45,270 nt of DNA from Escherichia phage Ioannina. The position numbers and the translations under genes were made by a program. Position 1 is the stretch's first letter, and each line of letters opens with the position of its first letter. The notes beneath the pieces were generated by a model. The model searched no databases. It saw nothing but the letters and a program-made list of their open reading frames with translations, and was not told where the DNA came from. Below are positions 4,880 through 27,997 of the stretch, piece after piece. The DNA lies in sequence record OQ589852.1. One strand, 5' to 3'.

Positions 4880-5012
4880 GCCGCCGTGTAAGTTTGAGTC
4901 GCCATCGGAAGATCCGGACGAAGATTTAGCGATTGATGTGCGAAATATGAAATGCGGGGCGGAGTTAAGGGCACAAGTGCTGGATTTGCAGAAATTAATT
5001 AAGGGGCCGTAA
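4782..5012 (+). CDS. Rz1-like o-spanin lipoprotein
   Basis: Signal peptide with lipobox LTAC, Pro-rich mature part with Cys; begins inside Rz in another frame and runs past its stop. Confidence 0.65.
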   Translation: MSRVLIAIIVSLMLTACGSSNVPLMPLTESAIKPPCKFESPSEDPDEDLAIDVRNMKCGAELRAQVLDLQKLIKGP

Positions 5013-5025
5013 TGGCCCCTTTCTA
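5002..5025. terminator. bidirectional rho-independent terminator (AAGGGGCC-loop-GGCCCCTTT)
   Basis: GC-rich perfect stem flanked by A-run and T-run; lies between convergent Rz1 and the minus-strand gene. Confidence 0.7.
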
Positions 5026-5787
5026 TTAGCGCGGAATACCGCAGATTTCGTTTAGTGTCTTCACGTCAAGCGCTACTGCCGTTGACTTCTTCTCTTCCTG
5101 CGGGATGAACTGTTTCACTTCAGGCCATGCCTTAATAAGTTTGGTGTCTGTAGTGTACTTATTCAGAGTACCCATAACTGACAATTTAAACTCATCGTAT
5201 TTAGCACGTAAATCGCGGCGCGCCTTGTCGTTCTTATCCAGACGTTTGCAAAATTCATGCTCTGCCGGGTAATCTGCACGACCGCGAGGCTTGTAGATCG
5301 GCACTTGCTCACCTTCCGCGTTAATTTCCACCAGCGCCGTAAGTAGCGCAGTTTCAAACCCAGGTACGATTTCGCCAATGTCCGGGGCCATCGAGTTATT
5401 GTAGCGGTCTTCCCAGTAGCCTCGGTGACAGCGGCTGCTGTAGTTATCACCGCTCAATGACAGTGTGCGGATGTTACCACCCATGTTGACTTCGAACGTT
5501 GCATCGTACACAGCACCAATGCCGTGGGGCATGTCCTTGTTATGGCTGAAGGTTGCACGGCTGGCGTACACGCTTATGCTAAACATGCCGTTATTTGTGT
5601 CTTGATAGCTGCGCATCATTTTCTGCAACCCAACGAAGCTGGTAACACCTTTCGGCATCTGATCCAGAGTGATATCCAGCGCCAGGTCGCGCGATTCGGT
5701 CATTAACTTTTTGGCCTGCTTCGTGATTTCGTGGCCTGCCAGGATGTTAGCCAGGATTTGCTTTTTAATGTCTTTAGTCAGTCTCAT
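5026..5787 (-). CDS. hypothetical protein, early-promoter-driven minus-strand gene inside the structural module
   Basis: About 253 aa from MRLTKDIKK with GAGGAAACAACA RBS; own promoter upstream and own terminator downstream; no recognisable motif. Confidence 0.5.
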   Translation of the reverse strand: MRLTKDIKKQILANILAGHEITKQAKKLMTESRDLALDITLDQMPKGVTSFVGLQKMMRSYQDTNNGMFSISVYASRATFSHNKDMPHGIGAVYDATFEVNMGGNIRTLSLSGDNYSSRCHRGYWEDRYNNSMAPDIGEIVPGFETALLTALVEINAEGEQVPIYKPRGRADYPAEHEFCKRLDKNDKARRDLRAKYDEFKLSVMGTLNKYTTDTKLIKAWPEVKQFIPQEEKKSTAVALDVKTLNEICGIPR

Positions 5788-5810
5788 TGTTGTTTCCTCG
5801 TTTGTTGGTG

Positions 5811-5885
5811 TGCAACCAATATATTGCAACCAATTAGCCAATGCAAGCAAATTTTGTGATTATTTTTATCACTGATAATATTAAG
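5811..5885. promoter_or_regulatory. divergent promoter region with tandem TGCAACCAAT repeats
   Basis: Minus strand reads TTGCAT-N17-TATATT, overlapping two ATTGGTTGCA copies; plus strand has TTGTGA-N16-TAATAT upstream of the scaffold gene. Confidence 0.55.
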
Positions 5886-5937
5886 GGCGTGAAGTCGAGC
5901 GGGTGGCCCGCTCTGCCACAATCCCTGGGGGATGTTA

Positions 5938-6641
5938 TGAAACTGACTAAAGCAGAATATGACGCGTTGCCTGAAGGCATGAAAGCATTGTTTGTTGCCG
6001 ATGGTGACGGGTACAAGGCGACGTTTATGACCGCCGAAGAAGTACAGGCCGAGATCAAAGGTCTGAAGGATAACAACGCGAAGCTGGTAGGCGAGAAAAA
6101 GGCAGAAGCCGAACGCCGTGCCGAAGCGGAGCGACTCGCTAAAGAGAAAGAGGAAGCCGCAGCGCGCAAGAACGGCGACCTTGAAGCGATCGATAAGTCC
6201 TGGCAGGACAAGTTTACTAAATACGATGCGGATACGAAGGGCAAAATCGAAGCCTACCGCAAACAGATTCACGATCTTACCATCGGCAGCACTGCCAAAG
6301 ACCTGGCATCAAAGCTGTTCGGTAAGAACGCTGGCATTATGCAACGCCACGTCATGGACCGCCTTGCGCTGGAAGAAGGCGAAGACGGCAGTCTGAAAGT
6401 GCGCGTATTGCAGGACGGCAAACCATCCGCACTGACTATGGAAGAACTGGAGAAAGAGTTCCGTAGTAACGAAGATTTCGCGTCCGTCCTGGCGGGTACG
6501 CCTGCCGGTGGTGCGCCGAGCAAACCGACCCATGTAATCGACGATCCGAAATCTAAGATTCAGATGGGTCATAGCTTCGGCATCACTGACTTGACCAAAC
6601 AGGCCAGCGATATTATCGCCAAACTGGGCGACGACGAGTAA
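5938..6641 (+). CDS. scaffolding protein
   Basis: About 234 aa from MKLTKAEYDAL; charged coiled-coil (AEAERRAEAERLAKEKEEAAARK); directly upstream of major capsid gene. The track's longer ORF from 5841 is probably an over-extension. Confidence 0.65.
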
Positions 6642-6644
6642 GCA

Positions 6645-6680
6645 GGTTGCCCGCGAAAGCGGGCAATTTTGCGAGCGTGA
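6645..6680 (+). terminator. rho-independent terminator/attenuator
   Basis: TTGCCCGC-GAAA-GCGGGCAA hairpin followed by TTTT. Confidence 0.6.
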
Positions 6681-6738
6681 AAAATTAGGGTAACATTAAA
6701 AGCACTGGGCGATTGCTCTCTACTCAAAGGATAAACTT

Positions 6739-7860
6739 ATGTCTTTAACAGTGTTCCAGCGTAAACTCGTCACCGCGGTTACGCAAATGATCCCCGACAA
6801 CTTGAACGTCTTCAACGCTGCCGCTAACGGCGCGGTCGTTCTCGGTACTGGCGAAGTGCTGAAAGATGTTGTCGAGAAGATGTCTGTAGGTCTGATCGCC
6901 AACCTGGTGTCTGACCGTAACGCATATGCCCCGGTTGGTACTCCTGCCGATGCGAAAGTGCTGGCGCGTATGCTGACCAACTCCGTTAACCTGTCCGCGA
7001 AAGTCGGTCCTGTTGCAATCACCAAAGCTATGATGGCTAAAATCGAAACCAACGTTAACAGCGTTGCGGCTGAGATTGCGGCACAGGCTACTCAAGCTAT
7101 CTTGCTGCACTACCTGAAAGCGGGTATCGGCGCTGGTAAAGCTGCGATCGACTCTAACGATGCGGCGAAATATACCCAACCGGCGCGCGTTGACGGTGTA
7201 GGCGGTCGTACCTTCCCGACCCTGGCAGACTTCCCGCTGGCGGCGGCTAAGTTCGGCGATCAGGCATCTCTGATTAAGTCCTGGTTTATGGACGGTGTGA
7301 CCTGGGCTAACTTCATTGCATATCAGGCGCTGCCTTCTGCTGAGCAGGTGTTCGCGATCGGCGACCTTCAGGTAATGGGTGATGGCTTAGGCCGCCGCTT
7401 TATTATCTCCGATGCCGCTGCCGATGCAATGGGCGCTGGCAAAATGCTGGGTCTTGTTCCGGGCGCGGTAGCAGTTACTACCAACGGTCTGGATATGCTG
7501 GCGCAGGAGCGTGGTGGTAACGAGAACATCGAGCGCTGGTGGCAGGGTGAGTTTGACTTTAACGTCGCTGTTAAAGGCTATCGCATGACCGCGGCAGCAC
7601 GCGCAGGCGTTGAAGGCGTCCGTTCCTTCAAACTGGCTGATATTACCAATACCAGTAACTGGGAACTGGATCAGGGCCAGGTCGATAACGCGCCGTACAC
7701 TACCTACGACGTTGGCGGCACGGATACTGAAGAGGGATCTACCACTTCACTGAAAGAGAAAGGTCGTCGTCGTAAGCAGGACGCGCAGGCCGTACCGACC
7801 CGCCACATCAAGGAAACTGCCGGTGTGTTGGTAACTCTGACGGCAACCACCGCATCTTAA
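6739..7860 (+). CDS. major capsid protein
   Basis: 373 aa, Ala/Gly/Val-rich; follows scaffold; strong terminator hairpin after the stop. Confidence 0.8.
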   Translation: MSLTVFQRKLVTAVTQMIPDNLNVFNAAANGAVVLGTGEVLKDVVEKMSVGLIANLVSDRNAYAPVGTPADAKVLARMLTNSVNLSAKVGPVAITKAMMAKIETNVNSVAAEIAAQATQAILLHYLKAGIGAGKAAIDSNDAAKYTQPARVDGVGGRTFPTLADFPLAAAKFGDQASLIKSWFMDGVTWANFIAYQALPSAEQVFAIGDLQVMGDGLGRRFIISDAAADAMGAGKMLGLVPGAVAVTTNGLDMLAQERGGNENIERWWQGEFDFNVAVKGYRMTAAARAGVEGVRSFKLADITNTSNWELDQGQVDNAPYTTYDVGGTDTEEGSTTSLKEKGRRRKQDAQAVPTRHIKETAGVLVTLTATTAS

Positions 7861-7867
7861 TCGGTGC

Positions 7868-7900
7868 ATACCCAAACGGGGCGGGCTTAAGCCCGCCTTT
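7868..7900 (+). terminator. rho-independent terminator
   Basis: GGCGGGCTT-AA-GCCCGCC then TTTTTT. Confidence 0.7.
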
Positions 7901-7917
7901 TTTATAGGAGCAATATC

Positions 7918-8418
7918 ATGTATGGCGACCCACAAACATTTGTAGATTATGCCAACGCGCGAGGCGTAGAAGTCACATTGGGAGATGCAACGCAGCACTT
8001 GACCGTCGTTAACGACTTCCTGAACGGCCTCGACTGGATCGGCGACCCTGCGGACCATCTCGGCGTCGATGCGTGGCCTCGTATGAATTTCACCTCCGAC
8101 GGTAAGCCAATCCGCGAAACGGACACGCTTGACATCACCACTATTCCGAAAGGCCAGCAAGTCGAGTTTTCTGCAATTCCCGTTGCCGTTGAGCAGGCGG
8201 TTTATCGACTTGCCTTGCTGGTGGCGGACGGCATTGATATTTCACCCATCGGCGGTGGTAAAGAAACAATCCGCGAAACGGTTGGCCCGATTACGATGGA
8301 ATATGACCCGTCTACCTTTGGCGGTTATGTTTCGTTCCCGTGGTGGGATGGTATGCTGAGCTACTGGTTGAACACCGAAGGCAACGCAGCCGGTAACTTT
8401 GACGTATACAGAGGTTGA
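7918..8418 (+). CDS. head-tail connector / head completion protein (putative)
   Basis: 166 aa; position between capsid and tail genes; AGGAG RBS. Confidence 0.4.
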   Translation: MYGDPQTFVDYANARGVEVTLGDATQHLTVVNDFLNGLDWIGDPADHLGVDAWPRMNFTSDGKPIRETDTLDITTIPKGQQVEFSAIPVAVEQAVYRLALLVADGIDISPIGGGKETIRETVGPITMEYDPSTFGGYVSFPWWDGMLSYWLNTEGNAAGNFDVYRG

Positions 8419-8420
8419 TT

Positions 8421-8882
8421 ATGAATCCTGCAATCATCGTAGCGATGCTGGCGGCGTTGGCTACTAAAGAAGACGAGCCAGAAGTAGAACAACCGGAGGC
8501 CGGAACAACCAGAAGGAGGCGAAAGAGGATGGCGGGCTTTGACTATCGGGCGTTGAAACGGAAAGTTAATCCGTTGATTAATAAATTTGGCATGAAGGTG
8601 ATGGCATCACGTCCAGGCGGCGTGGTGCGCGTGGGCGGCGAGGAAGTGGTGACGCCGCCGTTATCGTTTGAAATCGTCGGCCTGCGTGAAGAATACAAGC
8701 CGCATGAGATAGACGGAACGCGTGTCCTTTCCGGGGACGTTAAATTTTTATGCCAGGCTACCGAGCAGTTGCAGGTTGGTGACACGGTTAATCTGAATAA
8801 CATCGACTACCGCGTGGTGAATCCTAACCCCCTGCAACCGGCAGCTACAACAATGCTGTTCCAGTTACAGCTAAGGGGCTAA
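8421..8882 (+). CDS. head-tail joining protein (putative)
   Basis: About 153 aa from MNPAII with GAGG RBS; call by position only. Confidence 0.35.
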   Translation: MNPAIIVAMLAALATKEDEPEVEQPEAGTTRRRRKRMAGFDYRALKRKVNPLINKFGMKVMASRPGGVVRVGGEEVVTPPLSFEIVGLREEYKPHEIDGTRVLSGDVKFLCQATEQLQVGDTVNLNNIDYRVVNPNPLQPAATTMLFQLQLRG

Positions 8883-8883
8883 C

Positions 8884-9474
8884 GTGGCAGAACAGTATTC
8901 TTTCGCGGCTACGATCGCAACGTGGGTAGAGAAGACGAAAGAGAACAACGATAAGGCGGTGCGGGCGGTGGGTATGCAAATCCTCGGTCGCCTTATCGAG
9001 ATCTCGCCAGTTGGCGACCCGAAGCGCTGGAAGATTAACCGCGCTTTCGCCCTTGCGCGGGAACACGCTAACAGAGTTAACGCCGCACAGCGCAAGAAGA
9101 ACGGCGGCAAACTGAAGCGAGGCCAGAAGAAGCACGCAAGCGTACTGGTTAGCTTCACGACGAAGAAAGGGCAGGTGACTTTCCGCCAGCGTGGCTGGGC
9201 AGCTAAGAATTACACCGGCGGGCGCTTCCGGGGAAACTGGCAGGTGTCATTTGATCGCCCGGCTACCGGTACAGTTGACCGCATCGACAAGGCGGGGGCC
9301 GCCACACTTGCCGCAGGGCGTGAGATTCTGGTGCAGTATGATTCGGACACGTACGGGTCGATCTGGTTTACTAACAATGTGCCGTATGCGCAGCGACTGG
9401 AGTACGGCTGGAGTAAACAAGCGCCCGCGGGCATCGTCCGCGTAGTGGCGGCAGAAATTAATTCGAAGGTGTGA
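8884..9474 (+). CDS. neck / head-tail joining protein (putative)
   Basis: 196 aa, GTG start after AAGGGG; call by position. Confidence 0.4.
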   Translation: MAEQYSFAATIATWVEKTKENNDKAVRAVGMQILGRLIEISPVGDPKRWKINRAFALAREHANRVNAAQRKKNGGKLKRGQKKHASVLVSFTTKKGQVTFRQRGWAAKNYTGGRFRGNWQVSFDRPATGTVDRIDKAGAATLAAGREILVQYDSDTYGSIWFTNNVPYAQRLEYGWSKQAPAGIVRVVAAEINSKV

Positions 9475-9475
9475 T

Positions 9476-9898
9476 ATGAGCAATACTAAAATCCGGAAGG
9501 CGCTGAATAGCGTAGTGGAAGAGTTAGCCGCGGAATTGCAGACGGGTACGCGCATTATCCGCATCAACTGGGAGAATATTGCGGGCGACCACGCAGACGG
9601 CAACGGCATCTACCTAGAGCCGTACCTGCTACCGGCCCCGACCCAGTTTGTTGGCCTACAGCAGAAGGGACGGATCTACGCGGGCGTGTATCAGGTTGCC
9701 GTAGTGTTCCCCGCGGACACGGGCACGCAGTATGCCAGCGAACTGGCGGACACCATTGCCGAGTCGCCAAAGTGGCAGAACGTGAAAATTGACGGCATGA
9801 CGTTCCAGTTACAAGATGCACCGTACACCAGTCCGGTGACTGAAGATATTGACGCGGCGCGCATTGTAATCACGGTTATGTACCACGGTTGCGCCTGA
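9476..9898 (+). CDS. tail completion / tail terminator protein (putative)
   Basis: 140 aa immediately upstream of major tail gene. Confidence 0.4.
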   Translation: MSNTKIRKALNSVVEELAAELQTGTRIIRINWENIAGDHADGNGIYLEPYLLPAPTQFVGLQQKGRIYAGVYQVAVVFPADTGTQYASELADTIAESPKWQNVKIDGMTFQLQDAPYTSPVTEDIDAARIVITVMYHGCA

Positions 9899-9959
9899 TT
9901 TGGCGCAATTCAGCGTGTGCGGTATCATTAATCGGAATAACTAAACAGGAGCATTCATT

Positions 9960-10685
9960 ATGGGTTATCAACTTCCTAACGGGTCCAGCGTCCAAATCGG
10001 GTCCGTACAGGGTGCAGGCATCGCAGTTACGGCAGCGTCGAACGCGGCGGCATCTATCAGCGACCTGACTCAAGGTTGCGTAATCACCTGCGCCGCTTCA
10101 CATGGTCTGGCGGTTGGCGACGTGGTTATGTTCACGAAATCCCCGTGGGTCCGTGCGCTTAACCAGGCTTTCATCGTGGGTAAAGTAGACACCAACGACG
10201 TGACGCTGGCGCGCTTCGACACGTCTGATACGACTAAGTATCCGAACGGTGCGTTCCAGGCAGGCACACCGGGTGAGGTCGTGAAGATTTCGAGCTTTAT
10301 CGACTTCCCGTTTATCACCAACGTTGCCGTGTCCGGTGGCGACCAGCAGACGACGACCTTCCAGCCGTTGCAGGTGAATACCGCGATCAGTCTGAACACC
10401 ACGAAAAACCCGTTGGTACAGACCTATACCTTCACCCACGACGAAGAAGACCCGATCCGTCCGATTCTGGAAGACCTGGACGACACGCAGAAGACAACGG
10501 TAATTAAGTTCACTAACCCGGCAGCGTCCAGCGGTAAAGGTGAAATCCGTATCTATGCGGCTAAGGTGTCCTTCCAGAAGATTCCGTCTGCGGAAGTAAA
10601 CAACGTCGAAACGGTACAATCCACTCTGACCATGCAGTCGGAAATGATGATTTACCGCAAAGACCTTGTTGAAGCCTTATCCTGA
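9960..10685 (+). CDS. major tail (tube) protein
   Basis: 241 aa, Ser/Thr/Val-rich beta-type composition; followed by attenuator hairpin and the G/GT chaperone pair. Confidence 0.65.
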   Translation: MGYQLPNGSSVQIGSVQGAGIAVTAASNAAASISDLTQGCVITCAASHGLAVGDVVMFTKSPWVRALNQAFIVGKVDTNDVTLARFDTSDTTKYPNGAFQAGTPGEVVKISSFIDFPFITNVAVSGGDQQTTTFQPLQVNTAISLNTTKNPLVQTYTFTHDEEDPIRPILEDLDDTQKTTVIKFTNPAASSGKGEIRIYAAKVSFQKIPSAEVNNVETVQSTLTMQSEMMIYRKDLVEALS

Positions 10686-10717
10686 TTTGGTCGGGTAAAT
10701 GGCGAGTGTTAACATTG

Positions 10718-10742
10718 GGGGCGTAAGCCCCCTTTTTAATGG
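10718..10742 (+). terminator. attenuator hairpin after major tail gene
   Basis: GGGGGCGTAAGCCCCC followed by TTTTT. Confidence 0.5.
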
Positions 10743-10752
10743 AGAGAATATC

Positions 10753-11115
10753 ATGGCTAAACAATCCCTTTTCACCCTCGACCCAAAACCGACTTTCAAG
10801 CTGCCTATTGAAATCCCGCGTCCGGGCGAGAAAGAGCCGGGTAAGCTGACTTTCACCGTCCGCCACCGTCCGATCGACGAGTTCTCGCAGACCATGCAGG
10901 AGACTGAACGCAAGCTGTCAGAGTATGACCAGAATGACCCGGACGGCTTTAACGTTATGGTCGAGGCCATCATGCATGTGGCTGAAGGCTGGAATCTGCC
11001 GGATGAGTTCACTGAAGAGAACGTACGCCGCCTGGTGGTGAACTATCCGCGTGCGTTCGGCGTGTTCCATACGTCGTACTATCTCGAATTGATGGGCTTG
11101 CGTGAAAAAAACTAA
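10753..11115 (+). CDS. tail assembly chaperone (lambda gpG-like)
   Basis: About 120 aa from MAKQSLF with GGAGAG RBS; ends just after an A-AAA-AAC slippery heptamer; lies between major tail and tape measure genes. Confidence 0.65.
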   Translation: MAKQSLFTLDPKPTFKLPIEIPRPGEKEPGKLTFTVRHRPIDEFSQTMQETERKLSEYDQNDPDGFNVMVEAIMHVAEGWNLPDEFTEENVRRLVVNYPRAFGVFHTSYYLELMGLREKN

Positions 11116-11429
11116 TTGAGGCGGCGCGACGCTTCTATGGTCCGCCGCCACCGTCCGAAGACCTTGCCGCTAGTTTATGGGGTGCGGCCCCCGAAGATAT
11201 TTGTCCGCCAGTTGCATTATGGCCTGATAACGTACAGGTCGTTGCCGTTTTCACTGACTGCTCAACGCAGTGGCGCACCGGTTTTAACGGCGCATACGGC
11301 ATCGACTACGGCGTGCTGGAATGGCTATTTAAAATGCACGGCATCGAAAATGAGAAGCGAGCTTTTAAAGATATCAAGTTAATGGAGCGTATTGCACTCG
11401 ACGAAATTGCAGCACAACAGGCCGGGTAA
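10753..11429 (+). CDS. tail assembly chaperone GT fusion (via -1 frameshift)
   Basis: G frame joined to the -1 frame at the slippery site; the extension is not the track ORF 11116..11382, which is in another frame. Confidence 0.5.
11106..11112 (+). other. -1 programmed ribosomal frameshift slippery site (A AAA AAC)
   Basis: Heptamer sits three codons before the G stop; the -1 frame beyond it stays open for about 105 codons of protein-like sequence (…AYGIDYGVLEWLFKMHGIENEKRAFKDIKLMERIALDEIAAQQAG) ending near 11429. Confidence 0.6.
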
Positions 11430-11440
11430 TTCCGGCCTTT

Positions 11441-11770
11441 TTCATAGCGGGACAGCGGGACGTCCCGTTTTTATCCCGCTGTCCCGCCCAGCCAAAAACT
11501 GCATACCTATTCAGAAATACTGCATAAAACCAAAACGGGACAAAAACGGGACAAGCAGGACGTCCCGCCTCAAAAGTGCATATCTATGCAGTTTTCGTGC
11601 ATAAAACGAACGGGACAAAAACGGGACAAATTGCAAGCGGGACAGAGCGGGACGTCCCGCCGTCCCTGCCAGAGCTGCCGCGGGTTTCAGCCGATCGGGA
11701 CAGGCGGGACAAAGCCCAGTCTTTCAGACTAGACGGGGGTCAATGGCCCCCTCCGTCTGAGACTGAATAA
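11441..11770. repeat. GGGACA iteron-like array plus conserved hairpin, copy 1
   Basis: At least ten CGGGACA/GCGGGACA units in both orientations, GGGACGTCCC palindromes, TGCATAAAAC boxes and the inverted repeat CAGTCTTTCAGACTAGACGGGGG…CCCCCTCCGTCTGAGACTG; about 180 bp nearly identical to 40205-40380. Confidence 0.8.
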
Positions 11771-11832
11771 GGTTGGTTGCAAAATGACTGATACAATACA
11801 AACGGCAACTTGCATAAAAAGGGGACTGCATA

Positions 11833-14475: not shown

Positions 14476-14480
14476 TAAAA

Positions 14481-14510
14481 TGGCCCTCACACACAACGTG
14501 AGGGCTTTTT
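14481..14510 (+). terminator. rho-independent terminator
   Basis: GCCCTCAC-loop-GTGAGGGC followed by TTTTTT. Confidence 0.65.
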
Positions 14511-14511
14511 T

Positions 14512-15896: not shown

Positions 15897-15898
15897 TC

Positions 15899-16639: not shown

Positions 16640-17247
16640 CCACGTTTAAATTATACGGCGTCTTAGGACGCCGTTTTGGTAAAGAGCATAAGCTGGACTG
16701 TTTCACACCAGGCGAGGGAATTACCGGTCTGTGTGTGAAATTGCCCGGCTTACAGGAATTTTTAATGTCTGCGCACCTGGACAATATGATGTTCAAAGTG
16801 CGTAAAGGCGGCCACACAATGGGAAGCACCGATGAACTGGGCGAATCCCACGGCAACCGCGTCATTACCATCGCGCCAGTTATGACGGGTGCAAAAAGCG
16901 GCTTAGGCCAATTGCTGGCTGGCGTGGCTATCGTAGTAGCCTCGTTCTATACGGGTGGTCTTGCAACTGCCGCTTTCGGAGCTTCCGCCGCCACCGCTGC
17001 CGCGATCGGGACCGCCACATTCTCATTCGGTATGTCAATGGCGCTGGGTGGTGTTATGCAGCTACTATCACCGCAACCGAAAGGATTGCAGACACGCCAG
17101 GATGTTGATAACAAAGCATCGTACGCGTTCGGCGGGCCAGTAAACACGACTGCGCAAGGGACCGCACTTGGTGTATTATGGGGCGAGCGTGAGATCGGCG
17201 GCGCTATTATTTCTGCCGGTATCGTAACTGAGGATTTACACGAATGA
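16591..17247 (+). CDS. tail assembly protein I-like
   Basis: Gly/Ala-rich hydrophobic C-terminal half; overlaps the K-like gene; the true start may be the downstream Met (MAMTTFKLYG). Confidence 0.55.
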   Translation: MGKTQRPTGENCDMAMTTFKLYGVLGRRFGKEHKLDCFTPGEGITGLCVKLPGLQEFLMSAHLDNMMFKVRKGGHTMGSTDELGESHGNRVITIAPVMTGAKSGLGQLLAGVAIVVASFYTGGLATAAFGASAATAAAIGTATFSFGMSMALGGVMQLLSPQPKGLQTRQDVDNKASYAFGGPVNTTAQGTALGVLWGEREIGGAIISAGIVTEDLHE

Positions 17248-20200
17248 CTATCGTCTATTCCGTAACGGGCCATAAGGGCGGTGGCGGGAAACAGCATACC
17301 CCGCAAGAAACACCCGACAGCCTGCACTCGCTGGCTAAAATCCGCATTCTGCTAGCACTGGGAGAAGGGGAATTTGAAGGAATCCCGTCGGCAGCCGAGC
17401 TACGCAAGCGTGTCTATCTGGACGGCACGCCGATCATGAACGAGGATAACTCGGAAAACTTCCCTGGCGCGCGCGTTGAGTTCCGCCCTGGCACACAGCA
17501 CCAGGACGTGATTCACGGATTTTCAGCCGTGGAAAGCGAGTCGTCGGTAAACGTCAAGCTGGAGCAGGGCGCACCGTGGGTACGTCAAATCACCGACACC
17601 AGTCTGGACGCGGTGCGCATTCGTATTGGCATTCCTGCGTTGTACACCAACGAAGATAACGGCGACCTGGTTGGTGGGCGTATCGACTATAAGATCGTGG
17701 TGTACACCGACAACGCCGATCCGCGTGAGTTTGCATTCGCTGCCGTTGGTAAAACAATGTCGCTGTATGAGCGCGACCACCGCATCGAATTACCGTCGAA
17801 CGTTAACACCGGCTGGCGCGTCGAAGTGCACCGCATCACCGCAGACTCCACCTCGGCGAAAGTGGTAAACGATATTCGCGTACAATCTATCACCGAGATA
17901 ATCGACGCCCGTTTGCGCTACCCGCTAACCGCGTTGCTGTTCGTTGAGTTTGATGCGAAGGCTTTCCAGGATATCCCGCGCGTGTCTATCAAGTGCAAAG
18001 GCCGCAAAGTGCTGATCCCGACCAACTACGACCCGATCGCACATACCTATAGCGGCGACTGGGACGGCACTTTCAAGCGTGCATGGACGGATAACCCTGC
18101 GTGGCACTGGTACGATATTTGTATTACGGAACGCTTCGGCCTCGGTCGTCGCATCAAGCCGCAGATGCTAAACCGCTATGCGCTTTACCAGATTGCACAA
18201 CGCTGCGATCAGATGGTTAGTGACGGCAACGGCGGACAAGAAATACGGTTTAAGAATGATATGTACATACAGTCGCAGACCGACGCATGGACCGTTCTGA
18301 AGGACTTAGCCGCCATCTTCGCCGGAATGACCTGGTGGGGCAATCAGATGCTGAATATTGTCAGTGACCAACCAGTCGCTGCGGTTTCGCACACCATTAC
18401 GAATGCCTCCGTTATTGATGGGCGATTCGATTATGCGTCTGGCAGCCAGAAGACTCGCTATTCAACATTCGCGGTGGCATACGGCAATCCGGCTAACCAC
18501 TACGATGACGCAATCGCAACGGGCCAGCGCGTGGAACTGGTGCGCCGCCACAAGATTAACCGCCTTGATATTACGGCGATCGGCTGTACGCGTGAATCTG
18601 AAGCGCAACGCCGCGGTCACTGGGCGCTTATTTCAAACCAGCTTGACCAGCAGGTTAGCTTTAAAGTAGGTATGGAAGGTCTGTTCTTCATTCCGGGGAG
18701 CGTGGTCGCTATCGCCGACACCAACATTTCCGGCGGTTTCGAGATTCGCGGCGGTCGCTTACTGGAAGACCCAGGCACGCGCACGGTGCTTAACACAGAC
18801 GAAGAAATCACATTCCGCCCAGGTGATAAATTCCTGGTGCGCACTGCGAACGGTAGTGTCGAGACTCGCGCAATATCAAGCGTCAACGGCAACAAGGTTA
18901 CGTTATCCAGTGCCCTGGACGCAGACCCGATCCCGTTCCAGCCGTTTTGCGTCGACGGTGATGATATTCAGGTGCAGAAGTTCCGCATCACCGATCTGGA
19001 GTATGACGACGCAACCAGCACTTTCTCGGTGCGCGGGATTGAGTACAACGACAGCAAATATGATGCCGTTGATAATGGCGCTCGTCTTGATCCTGGCATC
19101 TTTACGCAAATGCCGGACGGTGTGCTGAAGGGGCCGGAATCCGTAACCATTACCCCGTCGCAGATTTCAAGCCAGGGTCAGTTAATCACCAACGTGGATA
19201 TTGTCTTTCCACCGGTGAAAAATGCCGTTGTATATGAAATCCAGTGGCGAAGGACCAGCCTTCAGAATATGGCGTTGCAGTGGGGTAACGACTGGGTAAA
19301 CTTGCCGCGTACGCCGTCGAACGGTGCACACATCCCCAACGTGTTCTCCGGTAACTACCAGGCGCGCGTCCGCGCAATCGGTATGGGTGAAATCTCATCC
19401 CCGTGGGTAGAGTCTGCCATCACGCCGATCGAGGGTCGTTTAGGTGGGCTGAATGCGCCAATCATTACGGCGGCAGTTTCCGGTTTGCATCAGATCTTGT
19501 GGAAGTGGAATCACAACAACGCTGCGACCGATATTTCATACACAGAGCTTGAAGTGCGCAAGCCAGGGACTGAAGAGTGGCACTTCCTCACTAACGTGCC
19601 GTACCCAGGCGCGGAGTACGCGCAGACTTCGCTTGAGTTCGGGATTTACCAGCAGTTGCGAGCGCGCGTAGCAGATAAAATCGGCAACCTGTCCGATTGG
19701 TCCGCACCGTTTGAAGGCCAGGTGAGCGATAAAGTTGACGACTACATGAAGGGACTCGACGATGAGTTTCTTACTTCTGAAGACGGCAAGCACTTCCAGG
19801 AACAGATCGACACGTTCCCGCAAGGCATTTACGAGTCAATGCTTACGGACGCGCAGCAGTTGCTTAACGCACGTGCCGAGTATCAAGGTATTTACGCCGA
19901 GATCAAAGTGGCCTATAACGTTGCTGCCGATGCGCACCAGGCGGTCGCTGAACTGGAAACGCTGATCGGCACGCGCCTTGATGATGCGGAAGCCGCAATC
20001 CATACGCTACAGACTGCGCAGAGCACACACGAACAGGCGTTCGCTCAGTACCAGCAAACGGTGTCAGCTAAGTTTGGCGATCAGGAAGCCGCAATCCAGT
20101 CAGTGCAAACGGCAACGAGTGATGTAGCCAGCGCTCTGGCGACCTACAAAACACAGGTAGCCGCGCAGTTCGGGCAACAGTCCGCCGCGATCGAGCAGAA

Positions 20201-20690
20201 AATGACGTCTACGTTTAACCACTCTGGTGGTAACGCAACCTACAGCCTGAAAGCTGGAGTTACGTACAACGGGACGTATTATGATGCCGGTATGCAGCTT
20301 TCGGTAGTTGCCGAAGGGAACTCGGTTAAATCGCGCATCGCGTTCAAGGCGGACCAGTTCTACATCATGCACCCGTCGAACGGTACGCTATCCTCCGCGT
20401 TCATCGTTGACGGCGGGCAGGTGTACATCGACACGGCCCGAATCAAGAACGCGTCCATTAACTTTGCGCAGATCACGGACACGCTGCAATCCAACAACTG
20501 GCAGCCTGGCAGCCAGGGGTGGCGAATCGCGAAGGATGGCGGCGCGGAGTTTAACAACGTGACAATCCGCGGCAACGTGTATGCGCAGACTGGTAACTTC
20601 GGTTTTTCAAGTGGGTCGGTACAAATCGACTGGTCGGGGGTAAACGTGCCGTTGCCTGGCGGAGGGCGGGTTAAAGTGGGGGTGTGGTAA
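17244..20690 (+). CDS. host specificity / tip attachment protein J-like (central tail fiber)
   Basis: 1148 aa, last gene of the M-L-K-I-J series; size and position match lambda gpJ. Confidence 0.85.
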   Translation: MTIVYSVTGHKGGGGKQHTPQETPDSLHSLAKIRILLALGEGEFEGIPSAAELRKRVYLDGTPIMNEDNSENFPGARVEFRPGTQHQDVIHGFSAVESESSVNVKLEQGAPWVRQITDTSLDAVRIRIGIPALYTNEDNGDLVGGRIDYKIVVYTDNADPREFAFAAVGKTMSLYERDHRIELPSNVNTGWRVEVHRITADSTSAKVVNDIRVQSITEIIDARLRYPLTALLFVEFDAKAFQDIPRVSIKCKGRKVLIPTNYDPIAHTYSGDWDGTFKRAWTDNPAWHWYDICITERFGLGRRIKPQMLNRYALYQIAQRCDQMVSDGNGGQEIRFKNDMYIQSQTDAWTVLKDLAAIFAGMTWWGNQMLNIVSDQPVAAVSHTITNASVIDGRFDYASGSQKTRYSTFAVAYGNPANHYDDAIATGQRVELVRRHKINRLDITAIGCTRESEAQRRGHWALISNQLDQQVSFKVGMEGLFFIPGSVVAIADTNISGGFEIRGGRLLEDPGTRTVLNTDEEITFRPGDKFLVRTANGSVETRAISSVNGNKVTLSSALDADPIPFQPFCVDGDDIQVQKFRITDLEYDDATSTFSVRGIEYNDSKYDAVDNGARLDPGIFTQMPDGVLKGPESVTITPSQISSQGQLITNVDIVFPPVKNAVVYEIQWRRTSLQNMALQWGNDWVNLPRTPSNGAHIPNVFSGNYQARVRAIGMGEISSPWVESAITPIEGRLGGLNAPIITAAVSGLHQILWKWNHNNAATDISYTELEVRKPGTEEWHFLTNVPYPGAEYAQTSLEFGIYQQLRARVADKIGNLSDWSAPFEGQVSDKVDDYMKGLDDEFLTSEDGKHFQEQIDTFPQGIYESMLTDAQQLLNARAEYQGIYAEIKVAYNVAADAHQAVAELETLIGTRLDDAEAAIHTLQTAQSTHEQAFAQYQQTVSAKFGDQEAAIQSVQTATSDVASALATYKTQVAAQFGQQSAAIEQKMTSTFNHSGGNATYSLKAGVTYNGTYYDAGMQLSVVAEGNSVKSRIAFKADQFYIMHPSNGTLSSAFIVDGGQVYIDTARIKNASINFAQITDTLQSNNWQPGSQGWRIAKDGGAEFNNVTIRGNVYAQTGNFGFSSGSVQIDWSGVNVPLPGGGRVKVGVW

Positions 20691-20696
20691 AACGCA

Positions 20697-20718
20697 AGGG
20701 GCCGTTTGGCCCCTTTCT
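20697..20718. terminator. bidirectional rho-independent terminator (AAGGGGCC-loop-GGCCCCTTT)
   Basis: Same stem family as 5002-5025 and 25167-25190; between convergent J and the minus-strand gene. Confidence 0.7.
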
Positions 20719-21692
20719 TAATACATATTAGGAAGGACAATCAGCGGTGTTGGTACGACAACATTGCGGTTAGGCATCTGGAATTGCTGCCGTGAATAGT
20801 TGCCAATGACGCGGTTTTTCGCTGCACCAACGACGCTACCCGCCATGCGTATCCCGTTCATGCGTACGTGGTTATAACCGCTATTGTTTTCAATAAGCGC
20901 GCCCGTGTATGAAAGCTGAATAAGGCTGTTACCGATATTCTGCCACCCTGCGCTAAGGTCAACCGTCCCGTTAAACACAAACGGCTTATTGACGGTGGAG
21001 AATGTAACCTGGCCTGCGTTGTTGGTCATCGTGATACCGGTTCCGGGGCTTGGCGGTGTGTTATTGAATATAACCAATTCCATGTCAACGGCAGCACCCA
21101 CATCATCAATCCCGCCGTAAGCCGCATTGCGGACGATAATACTGCCTCCATCGAAGCCAACCGACACGTTAGGGTCATCCCAACGGGCGAACGGAACACC
21201 TCCTACCGGCAGCGGCATACTTCCGTTCACATGGACGCGCTGCGCGTAGCGACAGGTCATCAGCCGAGCGACGTTTGATATGGCGGTAAAGTCCGTCGAG
21301 TTAGCCACCAGAAGCCCAGCATTACGCGACCCCACCGGCAGCACTTCCATAATCGTTCCCGCCCAGGTTGGAAGCCCGCTATAAGCGCCCAGCGCGTCAG
21401 CACCGTGCAGCGTAATTCCGCCATCACCATTTCGAGATATTGACGTTACAAACATCGGATCGGGTATTACCAGTGTTTGGTCGAACACTTCCACCACTTC
21501 AACGGGATTAGTTAGCACGACTATAAGCTGCGATCCAGGCGTTAGCGGAGTATTGACTGTTAGCGTCTTGTCAGATTGGCAGCGCTGATTAAAATTGGTA
21601 CAAAAAGACGGAGCACGAAGCCCCGCCGTAATTTCCATTCTTGGACGTCCATCGTTGTATTCGATAAGGATACCTGCACCCATAATTACCAC
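20718..21692 (-). CDS. hypothetical beta-rich protein (possible receptor-binding or secreted partner of the lipoprotein)
   Basis: 324 aa, Gly/Asn/Thr/Val-rich; second gene of a minus-strand cassette antisense to the tail genes; no motif recognised. Confidence 0.5.
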   Translation of the reverse strand: MVIMGAGILIEYNDGRPRMEITAGLRAPSFCTNFNQRCQSDKTLTVNTPLTPGSQLIVVLTNPVEVVEVFDQTLVIPDPMFVTSISRNGDGGITLHGADALGAYSGLPTWAGTIMEVLPVGSRNAGLLVANSTDFTAISNVARLMTCRYAQRVHVNGSMPLPVGGVPFARWDDPNVSVGFDGGSIIVRNAAYGGIDDVGAAVDMELVIFNNTPPSPGTGITMTNNAGQVTFSTVNKPFVFNGTVDLSAGWQNIGNSLIQLSYTGALIENNSGYNHVRMNGIRMAGSVVGAAKNRVIGNYSRQQFQMPNRNVVVPTPLIVLPNMY

Positions 21693-21910
21693 TCCCGTGA
21701 TTTAACTGATACCGTACCAGAGAAGTTACCGTCTGAATCTGCCGCCAAACCGGTGAATCGCATGTCAATGCCTCCGGCAGCGACCTTTTGCCCGTCAACA
21801 TAACGCAACATGCAGCTTCCCGCAACGTAGGTAACGCAATCGCCATTATGACGCTCAACAGCACAACCACACACCATAGCAACGACTAAAATACTTAATA
21901 AAGTTTTCAT
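21686..21910 (-). CDS. small lipoprotein, candidate Cor/Llp-like superinfection-exclusion protein
   Basis: About 74 aa from MKTLLSILVVAMVCGC (signal peptide with Cys); AAGGAG RBS; early-type promoter upstream; sits beside host-range genes as cor does in lambdoid phages and llp in T5. Confidence 0.45.
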   Translation of the reverse strand: MKTLLSILVVAMVCGCAVERHNGDCVTYVAGSCMLRYVDGQKVAAGGIDMRFTGLAADSDGNFSGTVSVKSREW

Positions 21911-21935
21911 GGTATCATCTCCTTTGTTTTGACAA

Positions 21936-21975
21936 CTTAAATATAGTGCAACCAATACGTGATTGCAACCAATTT
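21936..21975 (-). promoter_or_regulatory. early-type promoter (TTGCAA-N17-TATATT) with tandem ATTGGTTGCA repeats
   Basis: Read on the minus strand: ATTGGTTGCAATCACGTATTGGTTGCACTATATT; drives the lipoprotein cassette. Confidence 0.55.
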
Positions 21976-21991
21976 ATGAGGAGTTTTCGCT

Positions 21992-24016
21992 ATGGCAGCG
22001 GGTACACTTAACGTAACAAACAACAGCAAGGCCGTAACGGGGTCGGGCACGACGTTTACGTCATTGAAAGCGGGCGACTTTTTATCGCTGGTGGTGGGGC
22101 AAGTCCCGTACACCGTCGCGATTGAGTCAATCCAGAGCAACACGGCGCTTACGCTGGCGCTGCCGTTTGACGGCCCAACGTCTACCGGTCTGGCGTGGGA
22201 CTCCGTATCCCGCGATACGATGTCGCTGGCGACTATGGGTGTGACCGTACAGGCGCAGAAAGCGCTACGCATGTTGATTGCTGACGAAAGCAACTGGCGA
22301 GCAATCTTCGGCGACGCAGAGCAAATCAGCGTGACACTGCCAAACGGCACGGTTATGCAGGGTATGTCGTGGGGCTATTTGTCCAGCCTTCTAAAAGACG
22401 TCGATCCGGTTGAGCTTCAGAATATTGCCAACCAGGCGGTTAACGCTAAAAACCAGGCTGTAACGGCGAAGAACGACGCCGTGTCTGCTAAGAACGATGC
22501 GCAGACTGCGAAGACTGCCGCAGAAACAGCGCGCACACAGGCCCAGTCGGCTAAGACCGCCGCAGAGTCAGCACGTGACGACGCGCAGACGGCTAAGACT
22601 GCCGCAGAAACAGCACGCACCCAGGCACAGACCGCGAAGACCGCCGCAGAAACCGCCCAGGGTGCGGCGGAAGACGCCCGCGATGAGGCGAAGCAATATG
22701 CAGAGCAAGCCGGAGCACCATATAAGCAGGTATTACAACCGCTACCAGACGTGTGGGTTCCGTTTAACGATTCGCTGGATATGCTCGCAGGCTTCGCGCC
22801 AGGATACAAGACGGTTACGGTAGCCGACGACGAGGTTATTATGCCTAGCGACAAGGTGGTGTCGTTCAAGCGCGCATCAACGGCAACATATATTAACAAG
22901 TCCGGCGAGTTTAAAATCGCAGATATTGACGAGCCGCGGTTCGAGAAATACGGCCTGCTTATCGAAGGCCAGCGCACTAACCACATCACCAACGGGGGCG
23001 CTCCGGCTGCCTGGGGCCGCAGCACATCGGTTGGAGTGGTTACGGGTACAGATGATTTCGGTTTCTTGTATGGAAAGTTTGGTATCGGCCAGGGCGACGT
23101 GGGCAGTACGACTGCGCGTAACCTGGCTTCCGTAACATCAGTAAACAGTCTGGATACTTCCGGCGACGATAAGTATGTAACGGCGTCATGCCGCTTTCGG
23201 TCCGACAAGGATGTACGTCTTCGTGTGCGTTTTGCAGAAGGCGCGGATCAAGGCAGCATAGCTTTCTCTGGCGACGCGTACATTAAATTAAGCGATTTGT
23301 CCGTGTCTAAGACGGGTGTCGCGGCAGACCGCATTACCGTAGAAGTAGAGAAAGACGAAGCCACCGGATGGAATCGTGCGGTGGTAATGCTGCAAGCTAC
23401 CACGGCGCTGGTGAACGCGCAGATCCAGATCTCGCCAGTGAGCAGTTATGCTGCCGGTGATTATATCGAACTGGCAACTCCGCAGGTTGAGTTAGGGATC
23501 GGGGCGTCTTCATATATAATCTCCGGAACATCTCCAACCACACGCGCCAGCGATATGGTGACGGTACCGGCTAACCGCAACCTGTATAACCTGCCGTTTA
23601 CGGTGCTTGTAGAAGCGCACAAGAACTGGTCTAAGGCGCCGAACGCAGCGCCGCGTGTATTCGACACCGGCGGTAATCAATCGGGTGCGGCTATTATCCT
23701 TGGATTCGGGTCTGGCGCTATTGACGGGTATCCGTACTGCAACATCGGCAGTGCTAACGGACGTGTGAGTGAAAACGCAGGGCTTAAGCATATGGTTATG
23801 GGTATGCGTGTGAAAGAAAACCAGAACACTTGCGCGGTGAGTAACGGCACTCTTTCGACCGAATCTAAAACCACATGGACCTACCTGCAAGGGTCTGCAA
23901 CGCTGCGAATCGGCGGGCAGACCACGAACGGAGACAGACACCTGTTCGGGCACGTCCGTAACTTCCGTATCTGGCATAAAGCACTGACCGACTTACAAAT
24001 GGGAGAATTAGTATGA
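21992..24016 (+). CDS. tail fiber protein
   Basis: 674 aa; fiber-type N-terminal module, Ala/Lys/Thr/Gln coiled-coil repeats (AKTAAETARTQAQ x4-5), beta-rich C-terminal domain. Confidence 0.75.
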   Translation: MAAGTLNVTNNSKAVTGSGTTFTSLKAGDFLSLVVGQVPYTVAIESIQSNTALTLALPFDGPTSTGLAWDSVSRDTMSLATMGVTVQAQKALRMLIADESNWRAIFGDAEQISVTLPNGTVMQGMSWGYLSSLLKDVDPVELQNIANQAVNAKNQAVTAKNDAVSAKNDAQTAKTAAETARTQAQSAKTAAESARDDAQTAKTAAETARTQAQTAKTAAETAQGAAEDARDEAKQYAEQAGAPYKQVLQPLPDVWVPFNDSLDMLAGFAPGYKTVTVADDEVIMPSDKVVSFKRASTATYINKSGEFKIADIDEPRFEKYGLLIEGQRTNHITNGGAPAAWGRSTSVGVVTGTDDFGFLYGKFGIGQGDVGSTTARNLASVTSVNSLDTSGDDKYVTASCRFRSDKDVRLRVRFAEGADQGSIAFSGDAYIKLSDLSVSKTGVAADRITVEVEKDEATGWNRAVVMLQATTALVNAQIQISPVSSYAAGDYIELATPQVELGIGASSYIISGTSPTTRASDMVTVPANRNLYNLPFTVLVEAHKNWSKAPNAAPRVFDTGGNQSGAAIILGFGSGAIDGYPYCNIGSANGRVSENAGLKHMVMGMRVKENQNTCAVSNGTLSTESKTTWTYLQGSATLRIGGQTTNGDRHLFGHVRNFRIWHKALTDLQMGELV

Positions 24017-24270
24017 AAGACTTAACGCTGAAGTTTGAAAACAAGGCCGCTTTTGCGGCCTTCAAAGCGCAGTTAAACTGGGACGAGAACGAAACGTTGC
24101 AAGATGATATTCTGCTTGATGTCATCGGCAACATGTATGATGGTGATGAGGATAATCTCGTTGCCGTTGAGGGCTACTTCGTTAACGTGCGCATTCTTGA
24201 CGACGACCACGGCATTAACTTTGAGCAGTATGCCGTTGTGTTAGACTCACCACTTCGTCAATGGGCTTAA
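24013..24270 (+). CDS. hypothetical acidic protein (possible fiber assembly factor)
   Basis: 85 aa, start overlaps the fiber stop (ATGA); no motif. Confidence 0.35.
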   Translation: MKDLTLKFENKAAFAAFKAQLNWDENETLQDDILLDVIGNMYDGDEDNLVAVEGYFVNVRILDDDHGINFEQYAVVLDSPLRQWA

Positions 24271-24340
24271 GAGGGTAAATCATGGTTACTAAAACAAACA
24301 TCCCAGCGGATATACGGCGCTGAAAAATTCTACTTCATCA

Positions 24341-25084
24341 TTGTCGTCTGACAAGATGGATAAGTCAGCCAATTTGTCGGACCTGGCAGACAAAACTGAG
24401 GCGCGAAGTCATCTTGGTTTAGGGTCAGCAGCCACGTTGGACGTAGGGGATAGCAGCGGAAACGCGATGAAGGTTGGTGATTTTGGATTGGGGCGACCTA
24501 ACGGCGCTAAGGTTTTCTATACTACCTCGCAAGACACGCTACTTGCTGGACTGGACCAATACGGTTTATGTGTGTTCAGGAACGACCTGCAGATCGCTGC
24601 GCCGTGGGATATATGGAACTATTCATCAAACCTGTTCTTCCGCGCCGGAGATACTTACAGTATGCTAAGCATACCGTTTGAGGCGGCTGGTAAGGTGAAG
24701 GTTTTCGGCGGTGCCGCGGGTTACGGGTGGAAGACAGGGCGAACACTGCTCGATAACACAACGACGACTATTGACACTAACGGATTTGTCAAGCAAGCAT
24801 CGCCGATTGTTAAAGTATTTGGTGATGGTAAATTTGAGGTTAATGAAGAGTCGAAAGGGGCTAGTGTAGATCGCATATCCGTCGGCGTTTATCGTATCTC
24901 TGGTGTTCTCGGTCTTAACTCAGATGCGGCCTGGGGTGGCGTAGGCGGTGGCTTCGAGATTCCGGTAGACATCAACAAGCAGCCGCGGGTGTGGGTTGAC
25001 TTCGAGGTTGAGCCTGAAGGGTCTATCATTCTTAAAACGTACCACCGGACACACGACACGGCTCCGTCTTTTGCAAAAACATAA
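24341..25084 (+). CDS. tail fiber-like protein (second fiber or receptor-binding module)
   Basis: N-terminal NLSDLADKTEARSHLGLGSAA motif is common in phage fiber proteins; Gly-rich beta C-terminus; start uncertain (TTG at 24341 or ATG near 24356). Confidence 0.5.
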   Translation: MSSDKMDKSANLSDLADKTEARSHLGLGSAATLDVGDSSGNAMKVGDFGLGRPNGAKVFYTTSQDTLLAGLDQYGLCVFRNDLQIAAPWDIWNYSSNLFFRAGDTYSMLSIPFEAAGKVKVFGGAAGYGWKTGRTLLDNTTTTIDTNGFVKQASPIVKVFGDGKFEVNEESKGASVDRISVGVYRISGVLGLNSDAAWGGVGGGFEIPVDINKQPRVWVDFEVEPEGSIILKTYHRTHDTAPSFAKT

Positions 25085-25166
25085 TTGACGGCGTTAATGA
25101 CGGCGATCCGGTAGATATTCCATCAGACGCTTTTATCTCAGTTCGCGTTAACATGCCGTAAGTGGA

Positions 25167-25190
25167 AAGGGGCCAAACGGCCCCTTTTTC
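25167..25190. terminator. bidirectional rho-independent terminator (AAGGGGCC-loop-GGCCCCTTT)
   Basis: Separates the plus-strand late module from the minus-strand early module. Confidence 0.7.
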
Positions 25191-25764: not shown

Positions 25765-25808
25765 GATTAAACTCCTTCAGGTTGCGGGCCGAAGCCCGCG
25801 ATTAATGA

Positions 25809-26279: not shown

Positions 26280-26321
26280 GGTTTATCTCCTTGAGGGGCG
26301 GCGGTATTGCCTCCCGATGTG

Positions 26322-27954: not shown

Positions 27955-27997
27955 GTTGTCTCCAGGTATTAAAAAGGGCGTTCCCTTCAGAACACCC

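Follow-up and report, generated by a model that had tools for sequence, protein, structure and literature searches.

Escherichia phage Ioannina (OQ589852.1; 45,270 nucleotides (nt), analysed over its full length and referred to here as the window) carries nearly the same hairpin at three junctions between convergent genes. The question that these junctions raise is whether the hairpins are copies of one module that came in with the minus-strand genes beside them, as a preliminary description of the sequence had proposed, or terminators that belong to their positions. The window is the complete genome of an Escherichia coli siphovirus of the genus Dhillonvirus, which is 99.5–99.8% identical to LM40P1 (OZ035746) and has about 160 related records; the phage is virulent. 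Judged from the sequence, the three hairpins are very probably intrinsic (Rho-independent) terminators that separate convergent late (plus-strand) and early-type (minus-strand) units, probably in both directions. They would be position-specific features of the phage backbone, kept by selection for structure, rather than copies of one mobile element.

There are exactly three occurrences of the sequence GGGGCC-N4/5-GGCCCC in the window, at 5003–5019, 20698–20713 and 25169–25184. When the spacer was allowed to vary from 2 to 10 nt, the pattern gave three matches as compared to 0.03 expected from 100 dinucleotide-preserving shuffles of the window, none of which reached three. Hairpin 1 (5001–5022, AAGGGGCCgtaatGGCCCCTTT, composed as AAGGGGCC-gtaat-GGCCCCTT(T)) lies between the o-spanin gene (+) and the Nmad5 gene (−), hairpin 2 (20696–20716, AAGGGGCCgtttGGCCCCTTT, composed as AAGGGGCC-gttt-GGCCCCTT(T)) between the gpJ gene (+) and the DUF6453 gene (−), and hairpin 3 (25166–25189, AAAGGGGCCaaacGGCCCCTTTTT, composed as AAAGGGGCC-aaac-GGCCCCTTT(TT)) between the distal tail-fibre gene (+) and the gene at 25189–25764 (−). 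The recurrence of one hairpin at three convergent junctions, as originally described, was thus borne out both by this excess and by the orientation of the neighbouring genes. All three hairpins have A's on the 5' side and T's on the 3' side; each starts at, or at most 6 nt from, one stop codon and ends 0–2 nt before the convergent stop, the former codon being placed inside the loop at site 1 and ahead of the hairpin at the other two sites, by 5 nt at site 2 and by 4 nt at site 3 when the intact frame is read.

The stems of 8–9 base pairs (bp), including six G-C pairs, and the loops of 4–5 nt lie within the definition of an intrinsic-terminator stem-loop that was applied here, namely a G+C-rich stem of at least 5 bp with a loop of 3–8 nt. 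RNA folding of the core hairpin yielded −15.0 to −15.9 kcal/mol on either strand (−15.0/−15.2 for hairpin 1), and other strong terminator-like hairpins in the window, whose stems differ, have energies in the same range. On the plus strand, the hairpins are followed by short U-rich tracts, UUUCUAUU, UUUCUUAA and UUUUUCAU. The hairpin predicted on either strand and the convergent junctions support the earlier view that these elements look like bidirectional intrinsic terminators. They resemble those known from E. coli and its phages, in which a GC-rich stem-loop with a 5' A-tract and a 3' T-tract fills the gap between convergent stops, and differ from them in no essential respect, although the U-tracts here are short and the function is predicted. 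No Rfam family matched anywhere in the window at the gathering thresholds.

Each hairpin would operate through its 6-bp all-G/C core and the A-T pairs that extend it, with the A's on one side and the T's on the other; since A/T flanks are present on both sides, either transcript of the same DNA would carry a hairpin with U's behind it. RNA polymerase would then be stopped from both directions, and antisense read-through into the opposing genes would be limited. Hairpin 1, for example, would close the terminase-to-spanin late unit on the plus strand and the Nmad5 cassette on the minus strand. The plus-strand genes downstream of hairpins 1 and 2 would need re-initiation, because these two hairpins would also stop late transcription.

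The conservation of the hairpins was examined in 18 genomes at site 1 and in 16 genomes at sites 2 and 3, comprising IMG/VR loci together with Teewinot and HK578. The loops drift, and the changes in the stem are compensatory: AAGGGGCC/GGCCCCTT is replaced by GGGGGCC/GGCCCCC, GAGGGGCC/GGCCCCTC, AAAGGGCC/GGCCCTTT or ATGGGGCC/GGCCCCAT. At site 1, one base pair is altered on both sides, from A-U to G-C; at site 3, 99% of the alignment cells are paired and two pairs are changed on both sides. Terminator stems are known to evolve by compensatory change (PMC5381666).

Terminators have been annotated at these junctions before. All three orthologous positions in WFI (vB_EcoS_WFI, MK373791) are labelled 'putative transcriptional terminator', site 1 on the plus strand; the site-1 hairpin of HK578 (NC_019724) has terminator annotations on both strands, and so has the gpJ/DUF6453 junction of the Tunavirus SA12KD (OL960582). 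A literature search on Dhillonvirus terminators returned annotation-level mentions only.

The stem itself is widespread. At least 120 viral contigs contain AAGGGGCC-N3-6-GGCCCCTTT; among the matches listed, only two are related to the window and at least 118 are not. This spread rules out the motif as a Dhillonvirus-specific element. The shared stem is a generic, common terminator design. In addition, an alignment of the three sites with 40-nt flanks revealed no extended flank similarity, the identity being confined to AAGGGGCC...GGCCCCTTT-T, about 20 nt. Concerted evolution or gene conversion between the sites was considered and is ruled out, as the site-1 and site-3 variants show no correspondence across 14 genomes; GGGGGCC at site 1, for instance, occurs together with AAGGGGCC at site 3. 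The proposal that a terminator module had been copied and reused finds no support in these three results, namely the absence of shared flanks, the unlinked variants and the unrelated contigs. The lone hint of copying between sites comes from L126, the closest non-identical relative, whose sites 2 and 3 share the loop aaac. The loop gttt of hairpin 2 in the window (20704–20707) is the exact reverse complement of aaac, as present at site 2 of L126 and in hairpin 3 of the window (25175–25178). This relation suggests a hairpin-loop inversion or a template switch.

Several points weigh against the assignment of the hairpins as bidirectional terminators. The U-tracts are short or interrupted, reading UUUCU, UUUCUU and UUUUUC on the plus strand and UUAAUU, UUGCGUUUU and UUUCC on the minus strand; the minus-strand tails, UUAAUUAA, UUGCGUUU and UUUCCACU, hold just two to three proximal U's, despite the convergent genes and the equal hairpin energy on both strands. 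Termination efficiency is therefore uncertain, above all in the minus direction. A generic terminator scan picked up just site 1, and that on the minus strand; by our reading, sites 2 and 3 escaped it because its greedy G-T stem extension consumes the T-tract, and these misses are not counter-evidence. The covariation is modest, with one or two pairs per site, and the sequences compared are related, so that the shuffle control does not amount to a probability. The identical 6-bp core at the three sites is accounted for only as a 'favoured design', to which an ancient duplication is a possible alternative. Finally, we infer actual termination, its bidirectionality and efficiency, and the early timing of the cassettes from the sequence.

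The variable slot at site 1 and its promoter motif

Hairpin 1 is located at the o-spanin stop in all 18 genomes, irrespective of the genes that follow it. The o-spanin stop, TAA at 5010–5012, sits inside the loop and therefore the 5' arm of the hairpin is coding, for the last o-spanin codons; the GGGGGCC/GGCCCCC variant of the stem corresponds to a change from K to R in o-spanin. In contrast to this constancy, the distance between the conserved anchors of the site ranges from 367 to 1606 nt across the genomes. The cargo consists of Nmad5 alone, Nmad5 with a second gene, the second gene alone, other combinations, or, in Teewinot, no gene; the second genes are a gp06-like gene, a gene of 121 amino acids (aa), or a DnaN-like gene that carries the annotation DNA polymerase III beta. 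These changes in cargo are framed by the hairpin and a promoter motif, the 10-mer ATTGGTTGCA, with replacement beginning no further than 12 nt beyond hairpin 1. The motif is kept at the slot's right edge in at least one copy in 18/18 genomes, and in both copies in 17/18, including Teewinot.

These comparisons yield a small new addition to what was known of the genus: site 1 is built of a constant promoter, variable cargo and a constant terminator, and hairpin 1 is a backbone element, not a part of a mobile cassette. Promoter and hairpin would thus form a fixed slot whose cargo is gained, lost or replaced. The slot, as seen in loci L124, L125 and L142–L153 (equivalent to 5023–5810 of the window), is a hypervariable accessory locus.

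Teewinot retains hairpin 1, the promoter with both motifs, and two stretches of Nmad5, about 25 nt from its 3' end and about 110 nt from its 5' end. Its consideration as a pristine, pre-insertion 'empty site' is ruled out, since the Nmad5 remnants at both ends identify it as an internal deletion derivative. The preliminary description had suggested a comparison of the junctions in related phages and had regarded hairpins without adjacent insertions as evidence against itself; the persistence of hairpin 1 without an intact cassette in Teewinot comes close to that situation.

The junctions within the slot show microhomologies. The Nmad5 deletion in HK578 falls between two 8-nt direct repeats, TTCGTCAG, and GTTGG marks the promoter-proximal insertion point. 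Extra genes at site 1 carry a small hairpin of their own, such as TGGGGCtttcGCCCCA in L147 and HK578. The architecture of o-spanin, convergent minus-strand genes and promoter pair recurs in the distant relative L155, whose head morphogenesis protein is 69% identical; L155 keeps the motif ATTGGTTGCA as well, whereas its stem at the o-spanin position, AGCCCGGC-aata-GCCGGGCT, is unrelated.

Nmad5 of Dhillonvirus has been reported to be non-essential, toxic to clone and linked to sensing in Tmn defence (PMC11846954), all of which fits a variable accessory slot. With its constant promoter and terminator and its dispensable cargo, the slot is a natural place for the insertion of payload genes in Dhillonvirus engineering; Dhillonviruses have already been engineered around nmad5 and anti-Tmn (PMC11846954).

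The motif ATTGGTTGCA has 21 matches in the window with at most one mismatch, as compared to 3.7 expected. It usually forms tandem pairs that overlap promoter-like TTGCAA-17-TATATT sites upstream of early-type genes, and single copies occur elsewhere. For cassette 1, which carries Nmad5, the promoter region (5811–5850, minus strand) contains a tandem ATTGGTTGCA at 5811–5834 and a sigma-70-like TTGCAT-17-TATATT, directly upstream of the gene. For cassette 2, which carries the DUF6453 gene and a lipoprotein gene, the promoter (21940–21973, minus strand) contains two copies of ATTGGTTGCA at 21947–21973 with TTGCAA-17-TATATT, directly upstream of the lipoprotein gene. The same arrangement is found at genes of the early arm (26325–26354, with the repeat itself at 26332–26353, and further at 28007–28033 and 30971–30992) and at plus-strand early genes (40534–40574). 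In 16/16 genomes, whatever the cassette allele, one copy precedes the start of the tail-fibre gene by about 25 nt.

Because the cassettes share this ATTGGTTGCA family, conserved at the slot edges, they appear to be wired into the early-type regulon of the phage itself rather than to have imported promoters. The two small minus-strand cassettes would be early-type units, antisense within the late region, that begin at the promoter motif and end at the hairpin, the motif and the hairpin being about 0.8–1.2 kilobases (kb) apart at opposite cassette ends. ATTGGTTGCA may mark an early promoter family, serve as a site for a phage regulator, or represent iterons. The motif is also present as a triple ATTGGTTGCC array at 40096–40172; Teewinot has a 53-nt-spaced array of 5–6 copies.

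Hairpins 2 and 3 and the variable tail loci

For site 2, the hairpin type changes together with the cassette allele and the last 30–60 codons of gpJ, and four types were observed in the 16 genomes. Type A, in six genomes including the window, comprises DUF6453 (324 aa) and the lipoprotein with the stem AAGGGGCC...GGCCCCTT, in one case ATGGGGCC...GGCCCCAT. Type B, in three genomes, is HK578-like with a 34% identical protein and the hairpin ACTAAAGCCCC-gcca-GGGGCTTTAGT. Type C, in six genomes, is Teewinot-like, having two plus-strand genes and then a minus-strand exclusion gene, with AGGGGC-ttcg-GCCCCT and a second hairpin, AAGCCCC...GGGGCTT. Type D, with yet another hairpin, was seen in EP23 alone. 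The left edge of the module lies inside gpJ, 90–190 nt upstream of hairpin 2. Hairpin 2 thus lies inside a horizontally exchanged receptor-binding protein (RBP) module and travels with its cassette, and its type offers a cheap marker of the RBP allele.

Cassette 2 has the features of the loci for receptor binding and superinfection exclusion, in that it directly follows a gpJ homologue, includes a lipoprotein and exists as discrete alleles among small siphoviruses. The parts of Maffei et al. (2021; PMC8594841) that deal with the bona fide RBP locus show that it is allelic and tied to the receptor, with horizontal exchange among Drexlerviridae, Dhillonvirus, Nonagvirus and Seuratvirus. Cassette 2, whose HK578 homologues are annotated as similar to rtp44 and rtp45 of RTP, sits at exactly that locus, which is shared with Drexlerviridae and Queuovirinae. 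The terminator is not discussed in those parts of their report; the change of hairpin type with the allele is added here.

Homologues of the cassette-2 genes were found in Drexlerviridae, Seuratvirus and Klebsiella phages, and the DUF6453-gene homologues of other genera are followed by analogous elements with an A-tract, a hairpin and a T-tract. The stem is GGGGCC in the Tunavirus SA12KD, beside a 74%-identical gene, CGGGGC in phiG7 (Seuratvirus), GGGGCG in A120 (Tempevirinae), GCCCC/GGGGC in e4/1c (Rogunavirus), and again GGGGCC in the Klebsiella phage RCIP0011, in which the genes are arranged differently.

At site 3, each of the 14 further genomes with a readable junction has an intact hairpin, with the loops aaac, atgc, atac, attc, gtat, acac, gtac, atat and gtgc. 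The right flank, which is the end of the early arm, is conserved, whereas the left flank, the tail fibre, is variable. When positions 24000–27000 were searched by BLAST, the homology of most relatives (about 150) began at 25164–25167, the left base of hairpin 3. Hairpin 3 therefore ends the early arm and marks the right edge of the variable tail-fibre locus.

KarlBarth (MZ501088; L157, 3662–3700) differs from these genomes. Its hairpin 3 is reduced to AAGGGGCC followed by ATCC, with a breakpoint in the loop, and the deletion removes the right arm of the hairpin together with three terminal genes of the early arm (the phrog_10558 gene and two upstream of it). No intact terminator is left there between the tail fibre and the early arm.

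The distance of hairpin 3 from the tail-fibre gene in the window is affected by a homopolymer at 25075–25079, which is A5 as compared to A6 in LM40P1. The resulting frameshift truncates the distal tail-fibre open reading frame (ORF) at 25084; the intact frame ends with ...SVRVNMP* at TAA 25159–25161, as in KarlBarth. The apparent gap of 80 nt after the ORF at 24341–25084 is an artefact of this frameshift in the A-run, which reflects either an error in sequencing or a genuine mutation at the C-terminal end of the fibre.

Alternative explanations for the recurrent hairpin

An extended reading of site 1 is that the late region of Dhillonvirus holds an antisense 'expression slot', in which a conserved early-type promoter and a bidirectional terminator fused to the o-spanin stop enclose defence-interface genes (Nmad5, DnaN-like, gp06-like and others) that are repeatedly swapped in, with the hairpins serving as preferred breakpoints. 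We regard this reading as speculative and, in its full form, unlikely; its breakpoint part is drawn from the KarlBarth loop deletion and the site-2 loop inversion. If it were true, such a slot would be a functional analogue, built from separate elements, of the shuffling of promoter-early stem-loop (PeSL) elements, which are mobile regulatory cassettes of the T4-type phages RB49 and phi1 (Arbiol et al., 2010, PMC2839356). In both cases, repeated early promoters and stem-loops flank non-essential genes in variable regions; insertions and deletions between relatives are bounded by PeSL and may be so here, the site-1 cargo changes lying between hairpin and promoter motif. In contrast to PeSL, the promoter and the stem-loop lie at opposite slot ends here, no composite repeat is formed at any of the three hairpin sites, and the hairpins are identical over about 20 nt without shared flanks. 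The site-1 junctions show microhomologies, not exchange within repeats, and one breakpoint lies in the loop of hairpin 3; no evidence of mini-circles was found here.

The hairpins may, with a rather low probability, drive module exchange as hot spots of recombination or deletion, by cruciform or hairpin-induced breakage, slippage or template switching, with termination being secondary. The KarlBarth deletion starting in the loop of hairpin 3, the onset of homology in about 150 relatives within a few bases of its left edge, the replacement of the site-1 cargo within 12 nt after hairpin 1, and the loop inversion between gttt and the aaac of L126 at site 2 all point in this direction. However, breakpoints next to a hairpin are also expected from homologous recombination between conserved flanks or from selection for intact genes, the left edge of the RBP module is inside gpJ and not at hairpin 2, the Nmad5 loss in HK578 occurred between the TTCGTCAG repeats and not at the stem, and only a single breakpoint falls inside a hairpin. 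The earlier suggestion of recombination at the hairpins holds, therefore, for one clear case, KarlBarth, and for some suggestive junctions, whereas the remainder is explained by conserved flanks and by homologous or microhomology-mediated recombination.

A moron-like or PeSL-like origin, in which pre-packaged promoter-gene-terminator units end at their 3' side in the hairpin and three minus-strand insertions brought its three copies, is less probable still. Morons are extra genes with their own promoter and terminator in lambdoid phages, a concept of Juhala and Hendrix. The likeness is that both small cassettes hold accessory genes which run antisense to the late operon and are enclosed by a promoter and a hairpin. 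Also compatible with such units are the co-variation of hairpin 2 with the allele, the GGGGCC hairpin beside the 74%-identical gene in Tunavirus, and the extra site-1 genes that bring the TGGGGCtttcGCCCCA hairpin of their own. In a moron, the promoter and terminator would belong to the inserted unit and be missing where its gene is missing. In contrast, hairpin 1 and the promoter remain when the cargo is deleted or replaced, as in Teewinot, the flanks being constant in 18/18 genomes with differing cargo; hairpin 1 overlaps the end of the o-spanin coding sequence, and the 'empty' site of Teewinot is an internal Nmad5 deletion. Moreover, hairpin 3 is placed so as to terminate the entire early arm, the three copies lack flank similarity, and the promoters of the cassettes are members of an early family that is the phage's own. 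Unlike for morons, there is no lysogenic expression here, because the phage is virulent.

This origin is largely refuted for sites 1 and 3. What stands of the pre-packaged units of the preliminary description is that hairpin 2 moves with the RBP cassette, including the C-terminus of gpJ; the description fails at site 1, where the hairpin and promoter stay as the gene goes. Similarly, the hairpins do coincide with edges of variable modules, but they are not uniformly insertion boundaries, given that hairpin 3 ends a 12-kb early arm kept in every relative.

That the palindromes are DNA sites for a dimeric phage or host protein (an operator, a packaging or a replication signal), and not RNA hairpins, is the least probable explanation of all, since perfect dyad symmetry and the half-site GGGGCC common to the three copies are outweighed by loops that vary in length (3–7 nt) and sequence across orthologues, half-sites that change by compensatory pairs, an unrelated stem at the same place in a distant relative, the constant abutment to stop codons with T-tracts, and the spread of the motif over unrelated viral contigs.

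Returning to the interpretation as position-specific terminators, the hairpins mark constant positions in the genus and are not traces left by recent insertions. The finding as first stated is ordinary and already known, in that the terminators were annotated earlier and the modularity of the RBP locus was published (PMC8594841). It matters little for basic biology, as standard terminators are concerned, and it illustrates that the identity of terminator sequences within one genome need not imply a shared mobile origin.

Gene layout around the three junctions

The late arm on the plus strand runs up to 5012 and encodes terminase, portal, head morphogenesis protein and the i- and o-spanins. The i-spanin gene (4571–4879, +) overlaps the o-spanin gene (4782–5012, +); both match PHROG Rz-like spanin families (E-values 7.5e-31 and 1.9e-22), are annotated in Oekolampad, and form the end of the first late unit, terminase to spanin. 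These overlapping genes close the head-morphogenesis unit about 37 kb away from the position at which holin and endolysin are annotated in related genomes, near the right genome end. Cassette 1 follows with Nmad5 (nucleotide modification associated domain 5; 5026–5787, −; Pfam PF18757, E-value 5.9e-43; ATG at 5787–5785).

The second plus-strand block, from the scaffold gene (start about 5937) through capsid, tail and tape measure genes, ends at 20690 with a tail tip protein resembling gpJ (17244–20690, +), annotated as host specificity protein J. Cassette 2 contains the DUF6453 'membrane protein' (20718–21692, −; PF20051, E-value 3.9e-123) and the phage lipoprotein (21686–21910, −; PF24052, E-value 7.7e-20). 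The lateral tail-fibre genes (21992–24016, 24013–24270 and 24341–25084, the last to 25161 in the intact frame; +) make up a variable locus. The 12-kb early/replication arm (25189–37457, −), found in every relative, has as its final gene the one at 25189–25764 (−; phrog_10558, E-value 6e-97), in the same order as in HK578 and Teewinot. After 37457, an early and lysis region on the plus strand extends to the genome end.

Between the cassette-1 promoter and the scaffold start, positions 5855–5935 form a regulatory region that is strongly conserved and contains two inverted repeats. One, GTGATtatttttATCAC, reads GCGAT...ATCGC in most relatives, which is a compensatory change; the other, GAGCGGGtggCCCGCTC, which lacks a T-tract, immediately precedes the scaffold gene. 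This region may comprise a late promoter or operator together with a structure of the 5' untranslated region.

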